Assembly: GCA_963702095.1 (NCBI GenBank)
Contig: OY969706.1
Coordinates: forward strand, 992,001 to 1,056,000
DNA: 64,000 nucleotides
DNA from: Candidatus Bathyarchaeota archaeon
GTDB lineage: Archaea; Thermoproteota; Bathyarchaeia; Bathyarchaeales; Bathycorpusculaceae
Direction of reading: 5' to 3'
Each line of letters starts with the position of its first letter. The stretch's first letter is position 1. Of the stretch, positions 12,485-19,982 are shown piece by piece. The notes under the pieces were generated by a model that was given only the letters and a program-made list of their open reading frames with translations, had not been told where the DNA came from and did no database searches. A program made the translations under genes and the position numbers.

Positions 12485-13363
12485 TTGAAATTCGGCATCA
12501 TGACACGTAACCCCGAAGCCTGGAGTAGCACACAGGTTCGTTTAGCACTCGACAAACGCAGCATCCCATACGAATGCTTCACTTTCCCACGCCTCGTCGC
12601 CCGGCTCGCCTACAAGCCCTACTTCAAAGTTAACGGAACAAGCATACTAGACGACTTAGACGCCCTCATCATCCGCCCCATCGGGCGTGGCAGCCTCGAA
12701 GAGCTGGTGTTCCGCATGGACATGCTCTATAAACTTGAGCGGCAGGGCTTCTATATGGTTAACCCCCCCTCGGCGATTGAACACTGCGTTGACAAATACG
12801 ACATACTTGCATTGCTTGAAGATGTCGGCGTTCCCGTTCCACGTACCCTTGCAACTGAGAGCGTCAACGAGGCAATCAAAGCTTTCCATGAACTCGGCGG
12901 CGACGTAGTTGTCAAACCCATCTTCGGCAGCCGCGGACAAGGCGCCACGCGAGTAAACGACATCGACATCGCCGACACTGTTTTCAAAGCCATTACCTTC
13001 CACCACGGCGTCATCTACATTCAGGAATTCGTTCCCCACGGCACCAGTGACATCCGCGCCTTCGTACTGGGCGACCAAGTTATCGCGTCGATGCGCCGTG
13101 TAGCCACAGGCTGGAAGACCAACTACAGCCAAGGAGCACGGCCTGCACCAGAAGAAATCAGTGATGAATTCAAAGAGTTAGCCGTCAAAGCCGCCAAAGC
13201 GGTGTGCTGCAAAGTTGCAGGCGTAGACATCCTTGAGGGTCCAAAGGGTCCGCGGATCGTGGATGTGAATAGTCAACCCGGTTGGAAAGGGTTGCAGGCG
13301 GTTACCAAGGTGGATGTCGCCGACGAAATCGTCAAGTTCATGCTAGACGAGTTGAAGAAGTAA
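12485..13363 (+). CDS. RimK-family ATP-grasp glutamate ligase (MptN/CofF-like)
   Basis: VVKPIFGSRG, QEFV, DIRAFV, WKTN, GVDIL, VNSQPGW. Confidence 0.85.
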   Translation: MKFGIMTRNPEAWSSTQVRLALDKRSIPYECFTFPRLVARLAYKPYFKVNGTSILDDLDALIIRPIGRGSLEELVFRMDMLYKLERQGFYMVNPPSAIEHCVDKYDILALLEDVGVPVPRTLATESVNEAIKAFHELGGDVVVKPIFGSRGQGATRVNDIDIADTVFKAITFHHGVIYIQEFVPHGTSDIRAFVLGDQVIASMRRVATGWKTNYSQGARPAPEEISDEFKELAVKAAKAVCCKVAGVDILEGPKGPRIVDVNSQPGWKGLQAVTKVDVADEIVKFMLDELKK

Positions 13364-13365
13364 CC

Positions 13366-13998
13366 TCAGCGGCTTTTTCCATATTTTTCTATAGTTTCTT
13401 TGAAGGCTCTTGCTGCCCGCTGGGGATCGTCCGATTCGAGGATGGCGGAAGTTACTGCGACTCCATCGACATCCGCTTGGAGAAGAAGATGCAGTTTCTC
13501 AAGGGTGACTCCGCCTGCAGCGAAGACCGGCAGCCGAGTCAGTTTTCTCGCAGCTTGGACGGTTTCAAGCGGCACAACCGGACATGTGGAACCTTCGCAG
13601 ACATGGAAAATGGAGCAGAATGAAACGTAATCTGCGCCTCCACGTTCAGCCCACCCCAGCCTACCTAAATCAACGTTTACGGTGTAGCCTACCAAAGCGT
13701 CGTTGCCCAAAACCTTCCGTGCCTCAGCCGGCGACACATCAAAATCGTCAAAATGCACACCGCCAGCGCTAACGGCTTTAGCCAAACCCAAATCGTTGTT
13801 CACCAAAAAAGGCGTCCCCCGCTTCCCGGCTAAATCCGCCAATGCTCCAGCCAAACGCAAATCTGCAGCTGCTTTCCCAGCCGAGTACTGTAGCAAATCG
13901 ACGCCGCCTCTTAGCGCCTTCTCTGTGGCAGAGATCAGCGCGTCAGCGGACTGTATTGGCGAAACAACCAGATACAATCCATGGGGTTTCATTTCCAT
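13366..13998 (-). CDS. thiE: thiamine-phosphate synthase
   Basis: LYLV, ALRGGV-LLQ, VNND, GVH, GADYV, AAGGV, GVAVTSAI; in the TPP-riboswitch operon. Confidence 0.8.
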   Translation of the reverse strand: MEMKPHGLYLVVSPIQSADALISATEKALRGGVDLLQYSAGKAAADLRLAGALADLAGKRGTPFLVNNDLGLAKAVSAGGVHFDDFDVSPAEARKVLGNDALVGYTVNVDLGRLGWAERGGADYVSFCSIFHVCEGSTCPVVPLETVQAARKLTRLPVFAAGGVTLEKLHLLLQADVDGVAVTSAILESDDPQRAARAFKETIEKYGKSR

Positions 13999-15041
13999 CC
14001 GTCCCTTGAGGCTTTCCAGTAGGCTGCCCAATAAGGGTCCAACGACGGCTTCTCTAGGGGTCTGCGTTGGTCTTGGCTGTTTATCCATAGCCCCTGTTTT
14101 TTGTCGGTGATTTCTCCGATTACTGCACTCGCTATCCCCTTTGCCTCCAGTGTGTGTTGAACCGACTCTGCCTTCGCTGGTTTAACCGTTGCCAGCAGGG
14201 TGCCTTCGCTTAGAGATTCGTAGGGCGACAAGTTGAACAATTCACAGACCTGTCGTGCTTCTTGGGTAACTATGATTTTGGATTGGTCAACTTCTAAGCC
14301 TACCCCCGACGCTTGGGACAACTCGTAAAGGGCACCGAAAAGACCGCCTTCGGTAACGTCATGCATAGCCGTAACACCATCCTCCCTCAAACCAACCGAA
14401 GCCGCCGCCAATGCGTCTTCAACTACACTGAACTTGTCTATATACCGCTGGGCTTTCAGCAAAAAAACGGGTCCATAAGCTTCTTCGACGGTTTGGGGAA
14501 AAACCCGAGCAAGAATAGCTGTGGCAGCAACGGCGACACCCTTAGTCATCAAGATGATGTCGCCAGGTTGGCTCATGTTGCTAGCGATGTATCGATCTTG
14601 GGGTACCACAGCCATCATGACGCCTCCTCCCACAACCGTGTAATCACAACCCACATACCTTCCCGTGTGGCCGCCGATGACTCCTATGCCCAGTTTCTCG
14701 CATTCACTGCTTATGCAGTCCCAGTATTGCTTGAACTCTTCATCTTTCATTTGTGGGGGCAAATTTAGGTTAACCATCAGAAACTGAGGTGCAAAACCAC
14801 AGGTCGCCAAATCCGAAGCCAACAGGTGCACAGAAATATACGCGGAATCCACAAAGCCCAAAGCTGGAATAACTGAGAGCGGGTCAGCGGTTGCAACCAG
14901 CACCTGATTGCCTCCTAAGCGGACTACCGCGTTGTCGCGTCCATGACCCGGCCCCACCAGCACCTCACTCCGCTTAGCGCCCAACTTATGGTACACCAAC
15001 GCCTCGATTAGGTCTAATTCGAATTTTCCGATTTCACTCAT
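13989..15041 (-). CDS. AIR synthase/PurM-fold protein (HypE/ThiL-related)
   Basis: DNAVV, TADP, SDLAT, GGHT, MHDVTEGGL; start set at MSEIG. Confidence 0.85.
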   Translation of the reverse strand: MSEIGKFELDLIEALVYHKLGAKRSEVLVGPGHGRDNAVVRLGGNQVLVATADPLSVIPALGFVDSAYISVHLLASDLATCGFAPQFLMVNLNLPPQMKDEEFKQYWDCISSECEKLGIGVIGGHTGRYVGCDYTVVGGGVMMAVVPQDRYIASNMSQPGDIILMTKGVAVAATAILARVFPQTVEEAYGPVFLLKAQRYIDKFSVVEDALAAASVGLREDGVTAMHDVTEGGLFGALYELSQASGVGLEVDQSKIIVTQEARQVCELFNLSPYESLSEGTLLATVKPAKAESVQHTLEAKGIASAVIGEITDKKQGLWINSQDQRRPLEKPSLDPYWAAYWKASRDGWK

Positions 15042-15715
15042 GCAGTATCCCTCACTTCTATGGCGACTCCGAGAAAGGCTCCGAATGGGAAAACCGCCGA
15101 CTCCAAATCGCCGAAGACCTTGGGAAAAAAGGTTGTGCTCCAAAACAATATATGGTATTTCCCCTCAAAATTGTTATGCAAATGGTTTTTTATGTCATCT
15201 ATAGAGTAAAAGTGTGCTCCTTTGTAGAATGATTCTTTCTTCGTTTTTGCTTCGATTTTTTTCCTCGCTGTGCTGGCGCTGTTTTTGTTCATAAGCCCCA
15301 CGATCACTCCTTTCTTCGCCACTCTAAACGCCTCCAAAAATGTGGATGCAGCGTCGGGTAGGTATTCTAAGCTGGTTATGTAGGCGATTAAGTCTATGGA
15401 TTTGTCTTTGAAGGGTAAGTGGCTACCGTCACTTTGCAGCAGACAGCCCTCTGTCCACAGCTTCTTTGCCGCCTTCAACATCGGGGCTGAGGTATCAATG
15501 CCACAGGATTCTATCCCCTTGGAGTCGATCCATCGTGTAAAGTGCCCTGTTCCGCATCCCACTTCAAGGAGGCTTTTTGCATCCCGAAAATGGTCCAACA
15601 GCTTTGTCAGGAGCTGCTTTTCTAGGCGGTCTGCCCTCTGATACTTTGCAGTATAGTACTCTTCGTATACCCTGGCAGTTTCTTCGCTCTGGTACTTTTT
15701 GCTCATGGCTTTCAT
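15038..15715 (-). CDS. class I SAM-dependent methyltransferase
   Basis: LEVGCGTG motif I; LPFKD. Confidence 0.85.
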   Translation of the reverse strand: MKAMSKKYQSEETARVYEEYYTAKYQRADRLEKQLLTKLLDHFRDAKSLLEVGCGTGHFTRWIDSKGIESCGIDTSAPMLKAAKKLWTEGCLLQSDGSHLPFKDKSIDLIAYITSLEYLPDAASTFLEAFRVAKKGVIVGLMNKNSASTARKKIEAKTKKESFYKGAHFYSIDDIKNHLHNNFEGKYHILFWSTTFFPKVFGDLESAVFPFGAFLGVAIEVRDTA

Positions 15716-16258
15716 CTAAGCAAGATACTTTGTATCCAAGAATCTTCTTACAGCTATGAGGACTGCGGCGGTTATGGGTACAAAGACTAAATCTACCAGC
15801 ACAGCTAAGTCGAAGACTGCAAACCCGATTCCGAACAGAGCAAAGTCGATGGCGAAAAAAATCGCTGTTTCAACGATGACTCCAAGAACCATGCCTACGA
15901 TTTCACTCTTTTTCCTCAGAGCGCCTGCAACCAACGCCATAGGAGTTCTGGCAACAACCAAACCGACGAGGTAGATGTAGGTGAATCCTGGGGGAACCAC
16001 TATGGTTCCTATGCTTGTTCCCGCCAAGTATCCGACGGCGCATCCGATGGCTGTTGAAGTGACGCCGACTTTTGGACCCAGCAGGATAGCTACCGTAAAA
16101 ATGATTATGGGTGCCAAGTTTATGGTTGAAAGTGGAGGCGGCAGTGGTATGGCGATGATTGTGGTTACCGCAATTAACGCCGCCATGACACCGGTTAATG
16201 CTACAATTTTCGTGGATGAATAATTTTTAGTATTTTGGACAGTTAGATTCAAGTTCAT
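15716..16258 (-). CDS. ECF transporter S component, probably thiamine or precursor specific
   Basis: Hydrophobic S-component pattern (AALIAVTT...INL...LLGP); ATG directly follows the riboswitch. Confidence 0.8.
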   Translation of the reverse strand: MNLNLTVQNTKNYSSTKIVALTGVMAALIAVTTIIAIPLPPPLSTINLAPIIIFTVAILLGPKVGVTSTAIGCAVGYLAGTSIGTIVVPPGFTYIYLVGLVVARTPMALVAGALRKKSEIVGMVLGVIVETAIFFAIDFALFGIGFAVFDLAVLVDLVFVPITAAVLIAVRRFLDTKYLA

Positions 16259-16261
16259 TTT

Positions 16262-16355
16262 TTTCCCTCCGCCAGTATTACCTGGTTCAGGTTCGCAGGG
16301 TCGATGCCGCCTTAGGCATCCTCTCAGCCGGGTCCTATCCCAGCTCCCCAAGAAC
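16262..16355 (-). promoter_or_regulatory. TPP (THI-box) riboswitch
   Basis: Minus strand reads GGGGAGC..GCTGAGA..ACCC.GCGAACCTGAACCAGGTAATACTGGCGGAGGGAA, matching the TPP aptamer consensus, upstream of a thiE operon. Confidence 0.92.
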
Positions 16356-16469
16356 TGAAGAGAAATTGTGCCATTGTGGCATATTAGTTTTGCTTTTTTG
16401 AATCCGTCTGCTTGGGTTATGGATTGCTTTATTAGGTACAGTCACCTCAACCAAATAGGAAGCTTTTCA

Positions 16470-16706
16470 ATGGTTAACCGCTTAACTGCCGTTTTGAGAG
16501 TAATTGGCGAAACCGCTTTCCTATTCGGATTGCTAGCATGGGCTTACGGGATTCTTATTCAGGTCACCCATCCTGAATGGTTGCCCCTTGGTCTTTCCCA
16601 CCTCATACCCTGGATTAGAGTGGATACGTTTACCATCCTTTCTTTTGTTATCGCCGCAGCCGGGTTTGTAGTTTGGAGGTTAACACGAGAGGTATATCGC
16701 GCTTAA
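16470..16706 (+). CDS. small 2-TM membrane protein
   Basis: MVNRLTAVL... hydrophobic ORF; start chosen at internal ATG. Confidence 0.55.
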   Translation: MVNRLTAVLRVIGETAFLFGLLAWAYGILIQVTHPEWLPLGLSHLIPWIRVDTFTILSFVIAAAGFVVWRLTREVYRA

Positions 16707-16778: not shown

Positions 16779-18032
16779 TTGATTCCATTGATTGAAATGA
16801 CTACCTGCACTTCAGCCTTATCCTTAGACGCCCACGTATACCTGCACGACATTGAAAAAGCCGATATCCTAATCGGAATACCCAGCTTCAACAATGTCCT
16901 CACCGCAAGTTACGTGCTCTCTCAAGTCACCAAAGGCTTGGACCAGTATTTCCCAGACCACCGCTCCGTCATTTTTGTCTCTGATGGAAACTCCAAAGAT
17001 GACACCCTCAACTCCGTTAAAAGGGTCAATTTGCCCTCGCAGGTCAAACTGATACCCGCCATTTACATGGGAATATCGGGCAAGGGCTGTGCAGTGCGAG
17101 CTATCTTTGAAGCTGCCAGCCACCTCGGCGTCAAAAGTGTAGCATTGGTCGATTCAGATTTACGCAGCATAACCCCCGAGTGGATAAACCTCCTCGTGTC
17201 CCCAACCTTGGCTGGAACGGGCTTTGTTGCGCCCTACTATAACCGCCGCAAATACGACGGCACAATAACAAACTTCCTATGTTACCCCATAACTGCAAGC
17301 TTGTTCGGCAAAAACATCAGGCAACCCATAGGCGGAGACTTCGGATTATCCATCGAGTTAGTTGAGGACCTGTTGGCTTCCTCTATGTGGGAGCTACCCG
17401 ACGTTAACCGCTTCGGCATCGACATTTTCGAAACAACCACCGCGCTTGCACATGGATACGAAGTTAAGCAGGCTTATCTTGGAATCAAAGAACATGACGC
17501 TAAAGACCCATCCAGTCAACTCGCGTCCATGTTCCGCCAAGTCATGAATACCTTGTTCACTTCCATCGAGCGGTATGAGGCTGTTTGGCGCAAAATTGAG
17601 GGCTACTCTGTAACAGAGATGGTTGGCGAGCCAAAGGATGAGGAAACACCGCAGCCAATCCAAGTTTCATTACCAAACACCATAGCGGCGTTCAAAGCAA
17701 ACTATGACACGTTTAGCTCGATCTACAAGAGATGCCTAAGAGCGGAAGTCATAGCTAAATTTGACGCACTAAGAAAAATCGAAGAGGTTGACGTCGACTT
17801 CTCCTCTGACGTTTGGGCTGAAACCGTCTACTCCTTTATTGCCGAGTATCATCATGCGCCTTTTGACCAAAGAGAAAAATTGATTGATGCGTTGCGGGTT
17901 CTTTGGATTGGGCGGGTTGCAGTTTTCCTGAAGCAAACGTGGAATGAGTCAAGGGAGATGGCTGAATCAAGAATCCTTGAGGAAGTACAGGTTTTCAGAG
18001 AGCTCAGGCATCAATTAATCGAGAAGTATTAA
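16779..18032 (+). CDS. glycosyltransferase, glucosylglycerate/mannosylglycerate synthase-like (single step)
   Basis: IGIPSFNN, SDG.S.D.T, GKG, VDSDLRSI, RQPIGGDF, FGIDI; next to gpgS/gpgP-like genes. Confidence 0.75.
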   Translation: MIPLIEMTTCTSALSLDAHVYLHDIEKADILIGIPSFNNVLTASYVLSQVTKGLDQYFPDHRSVIFVSDGNSKDDTLNSVKRVNLPSQVKLIPAIYMGISGKGCAVRAIFEAASHLGVKSVALVDSDLRSITPEWINLLVSPTLAGTGFVAPYYNRRKYDGTITNFLCYPITASLFGKNIRQPIGGDFGLSIELVEDLLASSMWELPDVNRFGIDIFETTTALAHGYEVKQAYLGIKEHDAKDPSSQLASMFRQVMNTLFTSIERYEAVWRKIEGYSVTEMVGEPKDEETPQPIQVSLPNTIAAFKANYDTFSSIYKRCLRAEVIAKFDALRKIEEVDVDFSSDVWAETVYSFIAEYHHAPFDQREKLIDALRVLWIGRVAVFLKQTWNESREMAESRILEEVQVFRELRHQLIEKY

Positions 18033-18040
18033 CGCTTACC

Positions 18041-18808
18041 CTACTTGTATGATAGAGTTTGAGTTACTGAAACAATTTCCTTCCAAACCGCCACCCGTTT
18101 AGCTGCACGATCAATGTAGAAAGGCTTATCCACCTTTTCTAGCATGGGCAAATCGTTTGGGCCATCGCCGACGCCGACCGTGCAGACATCGCCAAATTGC
18201 TGCCTATACAACTCTTTTAGAATTGCCACTGCCTTGCCTTTGTCTGTGTTGCCCAAGGCGTGGAAATATCGTCCACCCAAAGTGTAGCATAGACCCTCAT
18301 TGCTTAATGCCTGCAGAACCTCCTGTTTGTTTCCGCTTAATATTTTGAAGGGTTCACTGTACTCTCTTTCTTTAGCAAGCTTCGCCTCAGCCAACGGCAG
18401 ACCATTATCAGCGGCTACTTCCTCCACGGTCATGTCTGCGAATCCGATGATGTTTGCTCCGGTTTGGAGTTTGATGGCTGCCAGTTTTCTGCAGATAACC
18501 CCGTATGGAAGCCCCAGTTCAATTACACAGTTGCCATAGGCTTTCTTGCAAAAATCAAAGCTATGAGAGAAGTAATTTTTAGGAATGATTATGGCTGAGC
18601 CGTTTTCGACGATGTAGGGGGCTGTGAGTTGGAGTTTTTCTCTGTAGAGGTTGATTTCACTTTTTGTTTTGCTGCTGACCAAAACCACTGAGACTTTGCG
18701 GGCAAACAGTTCCCTTAGGCTGGGTTCTATGTCGGTGTACTCATAGTTTGCGTTAAGCAGGCTGCCGTCGAGGTCGCTGAAGATAACAATCTTTCTCTTA
18801 TTGTTCAA
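18041..18808 (-). CDS. glucosyl/mannosyl-3-phosphoglycerate phosphatase (HAD IIB)
   Basis: DLDGSLL, SSKT, ENG, REYSEPF, GGRY, DKGKA, GDGPND. Confidence 0.88.
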   Translation of the reverse strand: MNNKRKIVIFSDLDGSLLNANYEYTDIEPSLRELFARKVSVVLVSSKTKSEINLYREKLQLTAPYIVENGSAIIIPKNYFSHSFDFCKKAYGNCVIELGLPYGVICRKLAAIKLQTGANIIGFADMTVEEVAADNGLPLAEAKLAKEREYSEPFKILSGNKQEVLQALSNEGLCYTLGGRYFHALGNTDKGKAVAILKELYRQQFGDVCTVGVGDGPNDLPMLEKVDKPFYIDRAAKRVAVWKEIVSVTQTLSYK

Positions 18809-19982
18809 TTGCTTTTTCCCTAAGCCTCTCTCTAATATTGGGCATAGCCGCCATAGTTCTTAACCAATCTGGCAGTTGTGCCCTCACAGGGTTTTCCATG
18901 TATTTTCTGCCCCCTGACATGATAACTGAGCTTAATGAGTCAACGTTTGTTTCTTCCTCATGCCTATCAAAGATTAGTCTGTTGCAGGTAGCATCCGCAT
19001 GGTATTGCCTGATTTTATCTTGCGCTAACCTTCTATATGCAACTTGGAGGCTGGTGAGGAAGGGTTCTGTAACATCGATGTTTTCTGTTTCAGCCAATGT
19101 CCGCAGCAGGGTTACAAAGGTGTCTTCAGCGGTTTTAAGTAAGCCGTTGCCGTCTATGGGTTTATGTCTGTGGTCGTAGACGCCGAGGTCGACTTGACAG
19201 ATGCGTCCGTAAGCCGCATTCCGGTAGACTTCGGAGAGTAAACCCAGTTCAAGCCCCCAATCGCTAGGCACCCTTAGGTGGGTTGCTAGGTCTCCGTAGA
19301 CTGCGATTTCGCCTGCAAGCGGATAACTAAAGGATTGCATGTAAGTTAGGAATTTTGAATACCGAAGTTTCTCCTGCAACACTTCTAGGATTGGATTGAT
19401 GAACAATCGGTGTATGCGCCCATAAAACCGTTTGTTTTCTAGACTAATCCTTGCGTAGTATCCTTTGGCGAAGAAGAAATCAAGTTTCGGCTCAATAACA
19501 GGGTAGAGCATCTTTGTGGGCAACATTTTTGTGTAGGAAACTATGTCGGCGTCATGCATTGCGAATGCAAAAAGGTCTATTGATGCTATCCCCATTGCCA
19601 TCCAGACATCTTTGCCTTTTCCTGAATGCTGGGTAACGTCTAATCCTTTGCTTTTAAGTTCTTCTAGAACCGCAAGCACCTCAGGCTTGTTGCACCATAT
19701 TACTTCGCAGGGGATTTTGAAGCTGCGACTTACTCTTAGGGCTTCCTCGTATTCATGGGGGTCTTTAACTGTTAGGGCAATGTAGACTTTGCTTAAATAA
19801 CGGCACTTATTTATTTCCTCGACGATTTTTGGTAATCCGGGACCGTTGATGTCGCTTCCGAAAATTGGGATTATCAAGCCTGAGGGAAATTTTTCTTTAA
19901 GGCTTAACAGGTTAGTTGATAATTCATCAAAATCCAAAAAGAAATCGTGAATATTAGCAATCTTCCGCTGATCGATATTCAT
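18798..19982 (-). CDS. gpgS: glucosyl-3-phosphoglycerate synthase
   Basis: GKGKDVW, HDADI, KGYYAR, YPLAGE, WGLELG, YDHRH; overlaps the phosphatase gene. Confidence 0.8.
   Translation of the reverse strand: MNIDQRKIANIHDFFLDFDELSTNLLSLKEKFPSGLIIPIFGSDINGPGLPKIVEEINKCRYLSKVYIALTVKDPHEYEEALRVSRSFKIPCEVIWCNKPEVLAVLEELKSKGLDVTQHSGKGKDVWMAMGIASIDLFAFAMHDADIVSYTKMLPTKMLYPVIEPKLDFFFAKGYYARISLENKRFYGRIHRLFINPILEVLQEKLRYSKFLTYMQSFSYPLAGEIAVYGDLATHLRVPSDWGLELGLLSEVYRNAAYGRICQVDLGVYDHRHKPIDGNGLLKTAEDTFVTLLRTLAETENIDVTEPFLTSLQVAYRRLAQDKIRQYHADATCNRLIFDRHEEETNVDSLSSVIMSGGRKYMENPVRAQLPDWLRTMAAMPNIRERLREKAIEQ

Follow-up and report, generated by a model that had tools for sequence, protein, structure and literature searches.

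A TPP riboswitch carrying the Shine-Dalgarno sequence within its aptamer precedes a thiamine-related operon in a Bathyarchaeon

Identification of the riboswitch

We identified a thiamine pyrophosphate (TPP) riboswitch in a 64,000-nucleotide (nt) stretch of DNA from a Candidatus Bathyarchaeota archaeon (GenBank GCA_963702095.1, contig OY969706.1). This whole stretch is called the window below, its coordinates are used throughout, and its host genome is labelled G000 in our samples. The riboswitch lies on the minus strand, in the 5' leader of an operon that begins with a gene for a transporter-like membrane protein and also encodes ThiL-like and ThiE-like proteins. When the window was searched with cmscan against all Rfam families, RF00059 (TPP) was the sole family to reach its gathering threshold. 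The match covers 16360..16247 of the minus strand with a score of 62.8 bits, compared with a gathering cut-off of 54.3 bits (E 6.1e-10), and it spans model positions 1-105 of 105 without truncation. A search of the whole genome, which is one contig of 2,937,366 bases, returned one TPP match only, at the identical site (E 6.5e-12). An initial annotation of this DNA had reported the full TPP consensus at 16256-16355. These coordinates fall within the RF00059 match, evidently describing the reverse strand, and the covariance-model search confirms the assignment.

The conserved cores CUGAGA, ACCUGA and GCG.AGGGA all align to the RF00059 consensus. The first of these is aligned to the invariant CUGAGA of the model, which we take, from solved TPP aptamers, to be the pyrimidine-sensing junction. 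We aligned 30 related copies of the element (alignment A2), and CUGAGA, ACCUGA and AGGGA are invariant in all 30, the G/A before AGGGA excepted. The element is also located in a 5' leader preceding thiamine transport or biosynthesis genes, with the ThiE-like and ThiL-like genes in the operon here and with ThiT, ThiW, CytX-like or ThiC encoded downstream in 49 of the 54 loci described below. Because the score exceeds a curated cut-off and compensatory changes are found in helices P3a and P3, the match is more than a chance resemblance. Judged from its sequence, the element is a genuine TPP riboswitch, belonging to a known RNA family in a lineage where that family is common.

Secondary structure

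A consensus fold of the 30 copies predicted by RNAalifold recovers helices P2, P3a, P3, P4 and P5 around a three-way junction, with 97-100% of cells paired (n = 30). The features below combine this fold with the Rfam alignment.

16247..16360, minus strand: TPP riboswitch aptamer (RF00059), full length
16322..16327, minus strand: CUGAGA core motif
16349-16347 with 16300-16298, minus strand: P2, GGG with CCC
within the aptamer, minus strand: P3a, AGCUGGG with CCCGGCU
within the aptamer, minus strand: P3, GAUGCC with GGCAUC
16266..16291, minus strand: P4/P5 arm, cells 100% paired in the 30 sequences
16291-16289 with 16268-16266, minus strand: P4, CCU with AGG
16285-16282 with 16275-16272, minus strand: P5, CCAG with CUGG
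16266..16270, minus strand: Shine-Dalgarno (SD) core GGAGG, 5' G at -12 from the ATG, overlapping the 3' strand of P4
16256..16258, minus strand: ATG start codon of the first gene, from the sequence and its open reading frame (ORF)
16352..16359, minus strand: 5' leader UUCAGUUC, candidate 5' strand of a clade-specific P1, pairing with 16256-16248 through 8 base pairs (bp) and one bulge
16248..16256, minus strand: GAAC-U-UGAA, candidate 3' strand of the clade-specific P1, running from the G of the AUG over codons 2-4
16381..16391, minus strand: putative archaeal promoter resembling a transcription factor B recognition element and TATA box (BRE/TATA), AAAACTAATAT, ending 31 nt before the aptamer GGGG

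Compensatory changes on both sides of the helix occur in seven pairs among the 30 relatives, two in P3a and five in P3, and the covariation score was reached by none of 500 shuffles. A16268, G16267 and G16266 pair with C16291, C16290 and U16289 to form P4, and G16265 and A16264 are junction residues. The initial annotation had assigned the GGAGGG sequence to the 3' strand of P1. In both the Rfam alignment and the RNAalifold structure, however, the 3' strand of P4 is formed by its AGG, and the two bases after this belong to the junction. The canonical P1 was rejected on these grounds as the strand that sequesters the SD.

P1 itself is degenerate, being weak or lacking in this lineage. In the Rfam register it opposes GUUCU (16355-16351) to the A-run at 16263-16259, where three of five positions form standard pairs. 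Across the 30 relatives 53% of the cells in this register are paired, and the RNAalifold structure contains no P1. With the aptamer helices enforced, UCAGUUC of the leader instead pairs with GAAC-U-UGA, and a duplex search adds one further pair (UUCAGUUC with GAAC-U-UGAA). This candidate clade-specific P1 has a predicted duplex energy of -6.6 kcal/mol (z -2.78); of 200 leader shuffles, three do equally well. The C16357-G16250 pair is replaced by U-A in L032, L033 and L038, the closest three loci whose first gene is of the same type; a synonymous leucine codon change from UUG to CUA is matched there by C-to-U in the leader. More distant Bathyarchaeial copies (L041, L044, L047, L051, L052, L058 and L066) have an ordinary strong P1, with z of -1.9 to -3.7 in L041, L044 and L047. 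A leader-to-downstream P1 conserved in all compact relatives was considered and rejected, as only 9 of 63 sequences have z < -2; these nine are mostly long-platform copies, plus the copy in G000.

Shine-Dalgarno sequence and spacing

The minus-strand RNA ends 3' with ...CUGGCGGAGGGAAAAAAAUGAAC, in which GGAGGG (16270-16265) is followed by six A's (16264-16259) and the ATG (16258-16256), just as the initial annotation described it. The 3' end of the 16S rRNA of this organism is ...GGAUCACCUCCU, which carries the anti-SD CCUCC and ends in CCUCCU. From long ORFs we compiled a crude genome-wide set of 2631 first start codons. The 5' base of GGAGG is found at -15, -14, -13 and -12 in 17, 28, 9 and 24 of these starts, compared with 0-4 at other positions, and the riboswitch GGAGG at -12 lies within this peak. 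The organism uses SD:anti-SD pairing, and the AGG of this SD is paired with CCU in P4. We infer that access to the SD is controlled by the ligand.

GGAGG is retained in 29 of the 30 relatives, the remaining one having GAAGG, and at the base that completes GGAGG the Rfam consensus has a lower-case u. In 26 of the 30 related loci the 5' G of GGAGG is followed 11-17 nt later by the start of an ORF of 100 amino acids (aa) or more. The other four (L009, L015, L024 and L025) have a first gene with a stop or frameshift, or have ACG in place of the start codon; either assembly errors in homopolymer-rich sequence or true pseudogenes may account for these disruptions.

Spacing was also scored more widely. 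From 60 Bathyarchaeial loci we scored the first downstream ORF in 54, omitting three that had no qualifying ORF and three that the search pattern did not match. The start codon lies within 15 nt of AGGGA in 42 of the 54, two of these resting on doubtful ORF calls. The remaining 12 have spacers of 34-156 nt; eleven have a longer leader, and the spacer of L024 reflects its lost start codon. Where the longer leader is real, P1 is usually clear, and a separate GGAGG lies near the start at several of these loci. Since the SD core of the element described here is within the aptamer and 12 nt before the ATG, translation initiation is the obvious point of control, and the suggestion of the initial annotation that the element is positioned for translational control holds.

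Promoter and transcript start

We looked for the promoter with an ad hoc motif, AA[AC]N[CT][TC]WAWAW, in the relatives with at least 50 nt of upstream sequence (n = 29). The motif ends 30-37 nt before the aptamer GGGG in 18 of the 29, and most of the others have similar A/T-rich strings there. With the usual archaeal distance from TATA box to start site, the mRNA would begin near 16358-16355, at the leader. A pyrimidine tract, UUUCUCUUC (16365-16357), lies just upstream of the leader and is complementary to GGAGGGAAA. Depending on where transcription starts, this tract is probably promoter-proximal DNA rather than RNA. A divergent ORF of 112 aa (16368-16706, plus strand) with hydrophobic stretches adjoins the promoter region and has no Pfam match.

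Distribution

The host is archaeal, as the initial annotation held, and the contig is not bacterial. Its small subunit (SSU) rRNA is assigned to the archaeal family RF01959 (1489 bits) after SSU clan competition, and the first downstream protein has relatives with 68-83% identity at seven named-genome loci, all in metagenome-assembled genomes (MAGs) of Bathyarchaeota/Bathyarchaeia, one of them Candidatus Bathycorpusculum termitum. Five of the seven loci reach the Rfam threshold upstream of the same type of gene, two of them with a second copy 1.36 kb downstream, and in L032 the same riboswitch sequence is recognizable by eye.

Of 61 relatives including G000, 43 carry RF00059, as do 34 of the 36 other genomes of the genus. 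A survey across Bathyarchaeia, which the initial annotation had proposed, detected it in 107 of 151 genomes evenly drawn from the class (completeness at least 80%), with up to four copies per genome. Among 151 genomes drawn from the phylum it is present in 31, and beyond the class it is limited to four sampled families, in which it occurs in 9 of 14, 8 of 15, 2 of 5 and 2 of 3 genomes.

The first downstream gene in the 54 scored loci encodes ThiT in 36, ThiW in nine, a CytX-like protein of the cytosine/purine-permease type in two and ThiC in two. In two further loci (G000 and G005) it matches PF07155 only, and three have no match. In most of the loci L002-L030 the riboswitch is followed by thiT and then by an AIR-synthase-family ThiL-like gene whose product is 29-36% identical to that of the window (tblastn). 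Controlled by TPP, this pair of thiT and thiL-like genes appears to form the usual uptake module of the genus.

Two loci, one of them from Ca. Bathycorpusculum termitum, contain two TPP riboswitches 1.36 kb apart (L036, 2892-3002 and 4252-4366; L037, 2862-2978 and 4220-4333). The first copy precedes an S component of the G000 type and a methyltransferase, and the second is about 0.6 kb upstream of a ThiL-like gene. The arrangement in G000 may be derived from such a tandem.

The downstream operon

The genes that follow the riboswitch are listed in the order of the minus strand.

15716..16258, minus strand: energy-coupling factor (ECF) transporter S-component-like membrane protein, 180 aa; PF07155, 40.3 bits compared with a cut-off of 26.7
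15038..15715, minus strand: class I S-adenosylmethionine (SAM)-dependent methyltransferase, 225 aa; PF08241, 69.1 bits
13989..15041, minus strand: AIR-synthase-family ThiL-like protein (kinase), 350 aa; PF00586 and PF02769
13366..14088, minus strand: ThiE-like thiamine-phosphate synthase (TMP-TENI domain); PF02581, 122.7 bits

The S-component-like protein has no NCBIfam match and no sequence relative in the PDB (best E 0.94). PF07155 is its sole family match, and it is neither ThiT nor ThiW. Every NCBIfam match of the methyltransferase is under its cut-off. The ATG of the ThiL-like gene overlaps the stop codon of the methyltransferase gene (ATGA), and the best NCBIfam match of its product is thiL TIGR01379, at 91.9 bits and under the cut-off of 184. 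The ThiE-like protein matches thiE TIGR00693 at 119 bits, under the cut-off of 145, and its true start is probably an internal ATG near 13998.

No match to ThiN, ThiT, ThiC or ThiD (Phos_pyr_kin) was found in G000, the completeness of which is estimated at 90%, and its Thi4 and ThiM matches are short and partial. Three EcfT/CbiQ genes are located elsewhere in the genome. The ThiE-like gene is present although the enzymes that make its two substrates are not recognized in G000. Both the PF07155-like transporter and the methyltransferase may act in a salvage route that has yet to be described.

A gene for a RimK-family ATP-grasp ligase (12485-13363, plus strand) is conserved beside the thiamine operon in relatives; its best NCBIfam match is the tetrahydromethanopterin:alpha-L-glutamate ligase MptN (258.5 bits, under the cut-off of 350). 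On the other side lies a cluster at 16779-19982 consisting of a 417-aa glycosyltransferase with a weak match to the mannosylglycerate-synthase GT domain (24.4 bits, under the cut-off), a HAD-type Hydrolase_3 phosphatase (18041-18808) and a 394-aa protein (18798-19982) with no Pfam match. This cluster may encode a compatible-solute pathway of the glycosyl-glycerate type.

ThiN-domain proteins in the class

ThiR repressors combine a helix-turn-helix with a ThiN domain, and we recorded ThiN in the same 151 genomes of the class. The domain occurs in 82 of them. Counts for individual families are as follows.

Family f1: riboswitch 20/20, ThiN 2/20
Family f34: riboswitch 14/15, ThiN 0/15
Family f7: riboswitch 6/6, ThiN 0/6
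Family f17: riboswitch 0/11, ThiN 10/11
Family f20: riboswitch 0/4, ThiN 4/4
Family f21: riboswitch 0/4, ThiN 4/4
Family f24: riboswitch 33/33, ThiN 26/33

The riboswitch and ThiN are largely complementary by family, which, as kin are not independent, is a pattern and not a test, and some families, such as f24, carry both. A ThiN match alone cannot separate ThiR from the ThiDN enzyme. Most of the matches are in frames of about 450 aa, which are probably the ThiDN enzyme. Four frames of about 300-320 aa (e.g. L073-L076) have ThiN in the C-terminal half, and three of the four have a weak helix-turn-helix match at residues 14-57; by its sequence this is the architecture of ThiR. The four genomes with these ThiR-like frames have no riboswitch match. 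G000 has no ThiN domain and thus no ThiR. The initial annotation had considered archaeal TPP riboswitches to be known mainly from Thermoplasmatales and archaeal thiamine genes to be mostly under ThiR-type proteins. In this class TPP riboswitches are not rare, given the counts above, and ThiR-like proteins are found mainly in its riboswitch-free families.

Proposed mechanism and alternatives

The riboswitch is probably a translational OFF switch that operates without a separate expression platform, turning off a thiamine-related uptake and salvage operon when TPP is plentiful. We infer TPP binding, the transcription start and translation initiation as the output. The mRNA would probably begin a few bases before the aptamer, and GGAGG would be the 3' strand of P4 plus the adjoining base, with the ATG following six A's later. 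Binding of TPP would lock the P4/P5 arm and the three-way junction, trapping the SD within the folded sensor, where it is unavailable for pairing with the small ribosomal subunit. As the SD sits in the 3' strand of P4 and the junction, sequestration would occur through the ligand-stabilized sensor arm and not through closure of P1. In the clade of G000 the 5' leader may additionally pair with the G of the AUG and codons 2-4 and thereby enclose the start codon. Without TPP the three-bp P4 would breathe, and the CCUCC of the 16S rRNA tail would win the SD. Such direct competition is the most economical reading, since the stretch between the aptamer and the ATG is too short to hold a terminator or an anti-SD platform. 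Transcription attenuation was rejected by inspection: the ATG comes just six A's after the aptamer, and there is no T-run behind it.

The predicted energies are -7.0 to -9.8 kcal/mol for the SD:anti-SD duplex and -8.3 kcal/mol for the P4/P5 arm folded by itself. Several observations weigh against direct competition in a platform-free switch. In an unconstrained ensemble starting at 16358, four of the five SD bases already have an unpaired probability of at most 0.07, so there is no clean ON state. The unconstrained minimum free energy (MFE) structure, at -41.9 kcal/mol, is not the aptamer fold and is more stable than the fold of aptamer plus P1 (-37.8 kcal/mol). The pairs of P2, P4 and P5 are invariant among the 30 relatives, and their support therefore comes from the family model and not from covariation in this set. 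P1, normally the switching helix, is weak here, and its clade-specific replacement is suggestive only, depending on one compensatory event that may have had a single evolutionary origin. The thiT-type relatives have no complementarity between leader and downstream sequence beyond chance (median z -0.06 for 63 distinct sequences). Finally, the first gene is outside the recognized thiamine transporter families. Thermodynamic modelling thus offers neither proof of direct competition nor clean support for it.

If transcription started further upstream, the tract UUUCUCUUC could pair with GGAGGGAAA as a dedicated anti-SD in competition with P4, and the MFE fold of 16365-16225 (-43.9 kcal/mol) does pair the nine bases of the tract with the SD. 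Relatives have pyrimidine-rich tracts in the same place, with a median SD duplex energy of -6.75 kcal/mol and z < -1 in 11 of 28. However, the tracts do little better than shuffles (median z -0.77, with 2 of 28 below -2), and the promoter-like motif would put the start about 23-24 nt after 16381, inside or past the tract. The logic would also be poor, as the SD would be blocked when the aptamer is unfolded at low TPP, the very state in which an uptake gene should be ON. We consider this arrangement unlikely. A comparably low probability attaches to the idea that the aptamer binds TPP and acts mainly on mRNA stability, with folding of the 5' end altering attack by archaeal 5'-3' exonucleases. 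The aptamer would lie at the extreme 5' end of the mRNA, and the modelling finds no clearly exposed SD in the free state, both of which suit such a model. However, control of translation explains the conserved GGAGG at SD distance, which decay would not need.

The ligand could also be different. An aptamer for an analogue or precursor of thiamine would suit the unusual transporter and methyltransferase genes downstream; the first gene encodes neither ThiT nor ThiW, and the genome lacks matches to ThiC, ThiD, ThiN and ThiT. However, the RNA fits the full TPP model, both sensor arms included, and it is nearly identical to the copies preceding thiT in 25 of 27 scored loci of the same genus and order. 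A variant class for hydroxymethylpyrimidine pyrophosphate (HMP-PP) is reported to be without part of the aptamer (PMC6478431), whereas the aptamer in G000 is full length. A change of ligand is very improbable in our view. It is more improbable still, to the point of being hardly credible, that the element is non-functional, either on a bacterial contaminant contig or as a decaying relic. The score is merely 8.5 bits over the cut-off and P1 is degenerate, but the window is in a single 2.94 Mb contig with an archaeal 16S rRNA, and the element is kept before thiamine-related genes in the 34 other genomes of the genus and the 107 genomes of the class noted above.

Translational control by direct competition between TPP and the ribosome may apply beyond G000. 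As a tentative generalization, nearly as apt to hold as to fail, the TPP riboswitch of Bathyarchaeia would be a platform-free form in which a strand of P4 has been recruited as the SD, the base before AGGGA has been fixed as G, and P1 has become dispensable, with TPP and the ribosome competing for five bases. In those families of the class that are auxotrophic for thiamine, this form would be the main regulator of thiamine genes, and most families that have no riboswitch would have ThiR-like proteins instead.

Relation to known systems

The thiM riboswitch of E. coli (RF00059) has a separate platform of anti-SD and anti-anti-SD sequences downstream of P1. The Bathyarchaeon element belongs to the same aptamer family and has the same expected logic, TPP turning translation off. 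Unlike thiM, it has no platform, its SD is the 3' strand of P4, its ATG comes 6 nt past GGAGGG and its P1 is weak. In the SAM-II, SAM-III/SMK box and preQ1-II riboswitches the SD is inside the ligand-stabilized aptamer and is occluded directly, with no separate platform. The element described here resembles these in having the SD as part of the aptamer, but has the three-way-junction fold of the TPP family and a different ligand. ThiR repressors perform the same task, the control of archaeal thiamine genes, as proteins rather than RNA.

TPP riboswitches upstream of transporters in Thermoplasma and Ferroplasma are mentioned in 10.1101/538918, which cites earlier work, and PMC5473149 describes TPP riboswitches as 'sometimes present' in archaea. 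Those of the Thermoplasmatales are likewise archaeal and likewise precede putative transporters, but belong to an archaeal lineage different from Bathyarchaeia. The fluoride riboswitch of Thermococcus kodakarensis is also a natural archaeal riboswitch thought to act on translation, and differs in class and ligand. According to PMC8241225, it was as of 2021 the only natural archaeal riboswitch tested experimentally, which leaves archaeal TPP riboswitches as computational predictions. Our literature search found no paper tying TPP riboswitches to Bathyarchaeia, a 2019 review by Gupta and Swati being outside its reach, and none joining ThiR, ThiN, archaea and riboswitch.

The element is not a new kind of RNA, and any Rfam-based annotation would flag it. 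With an aptamer of about 100 nt that includes the SD and a start codon only 6 nt beyond, the element is compact enough to be studied easily by in vitro probing and toeprinting. It could also serve as a regulatory part in archaeal genetics and, if the platform-free reading is true, would be a natural minimal SD-dependent riboswitch part for archaea. Bathyarchaeia are an abundant and uncultured class. The presence of the riboswitch in most of the genomes sampled from it, usually before thiamine transporters, together with the absence of recognizable thiamine synthesis genes in G000, points to dependence on vitamin B1 and control of its uptake at the RNA level as a common trait of the class.

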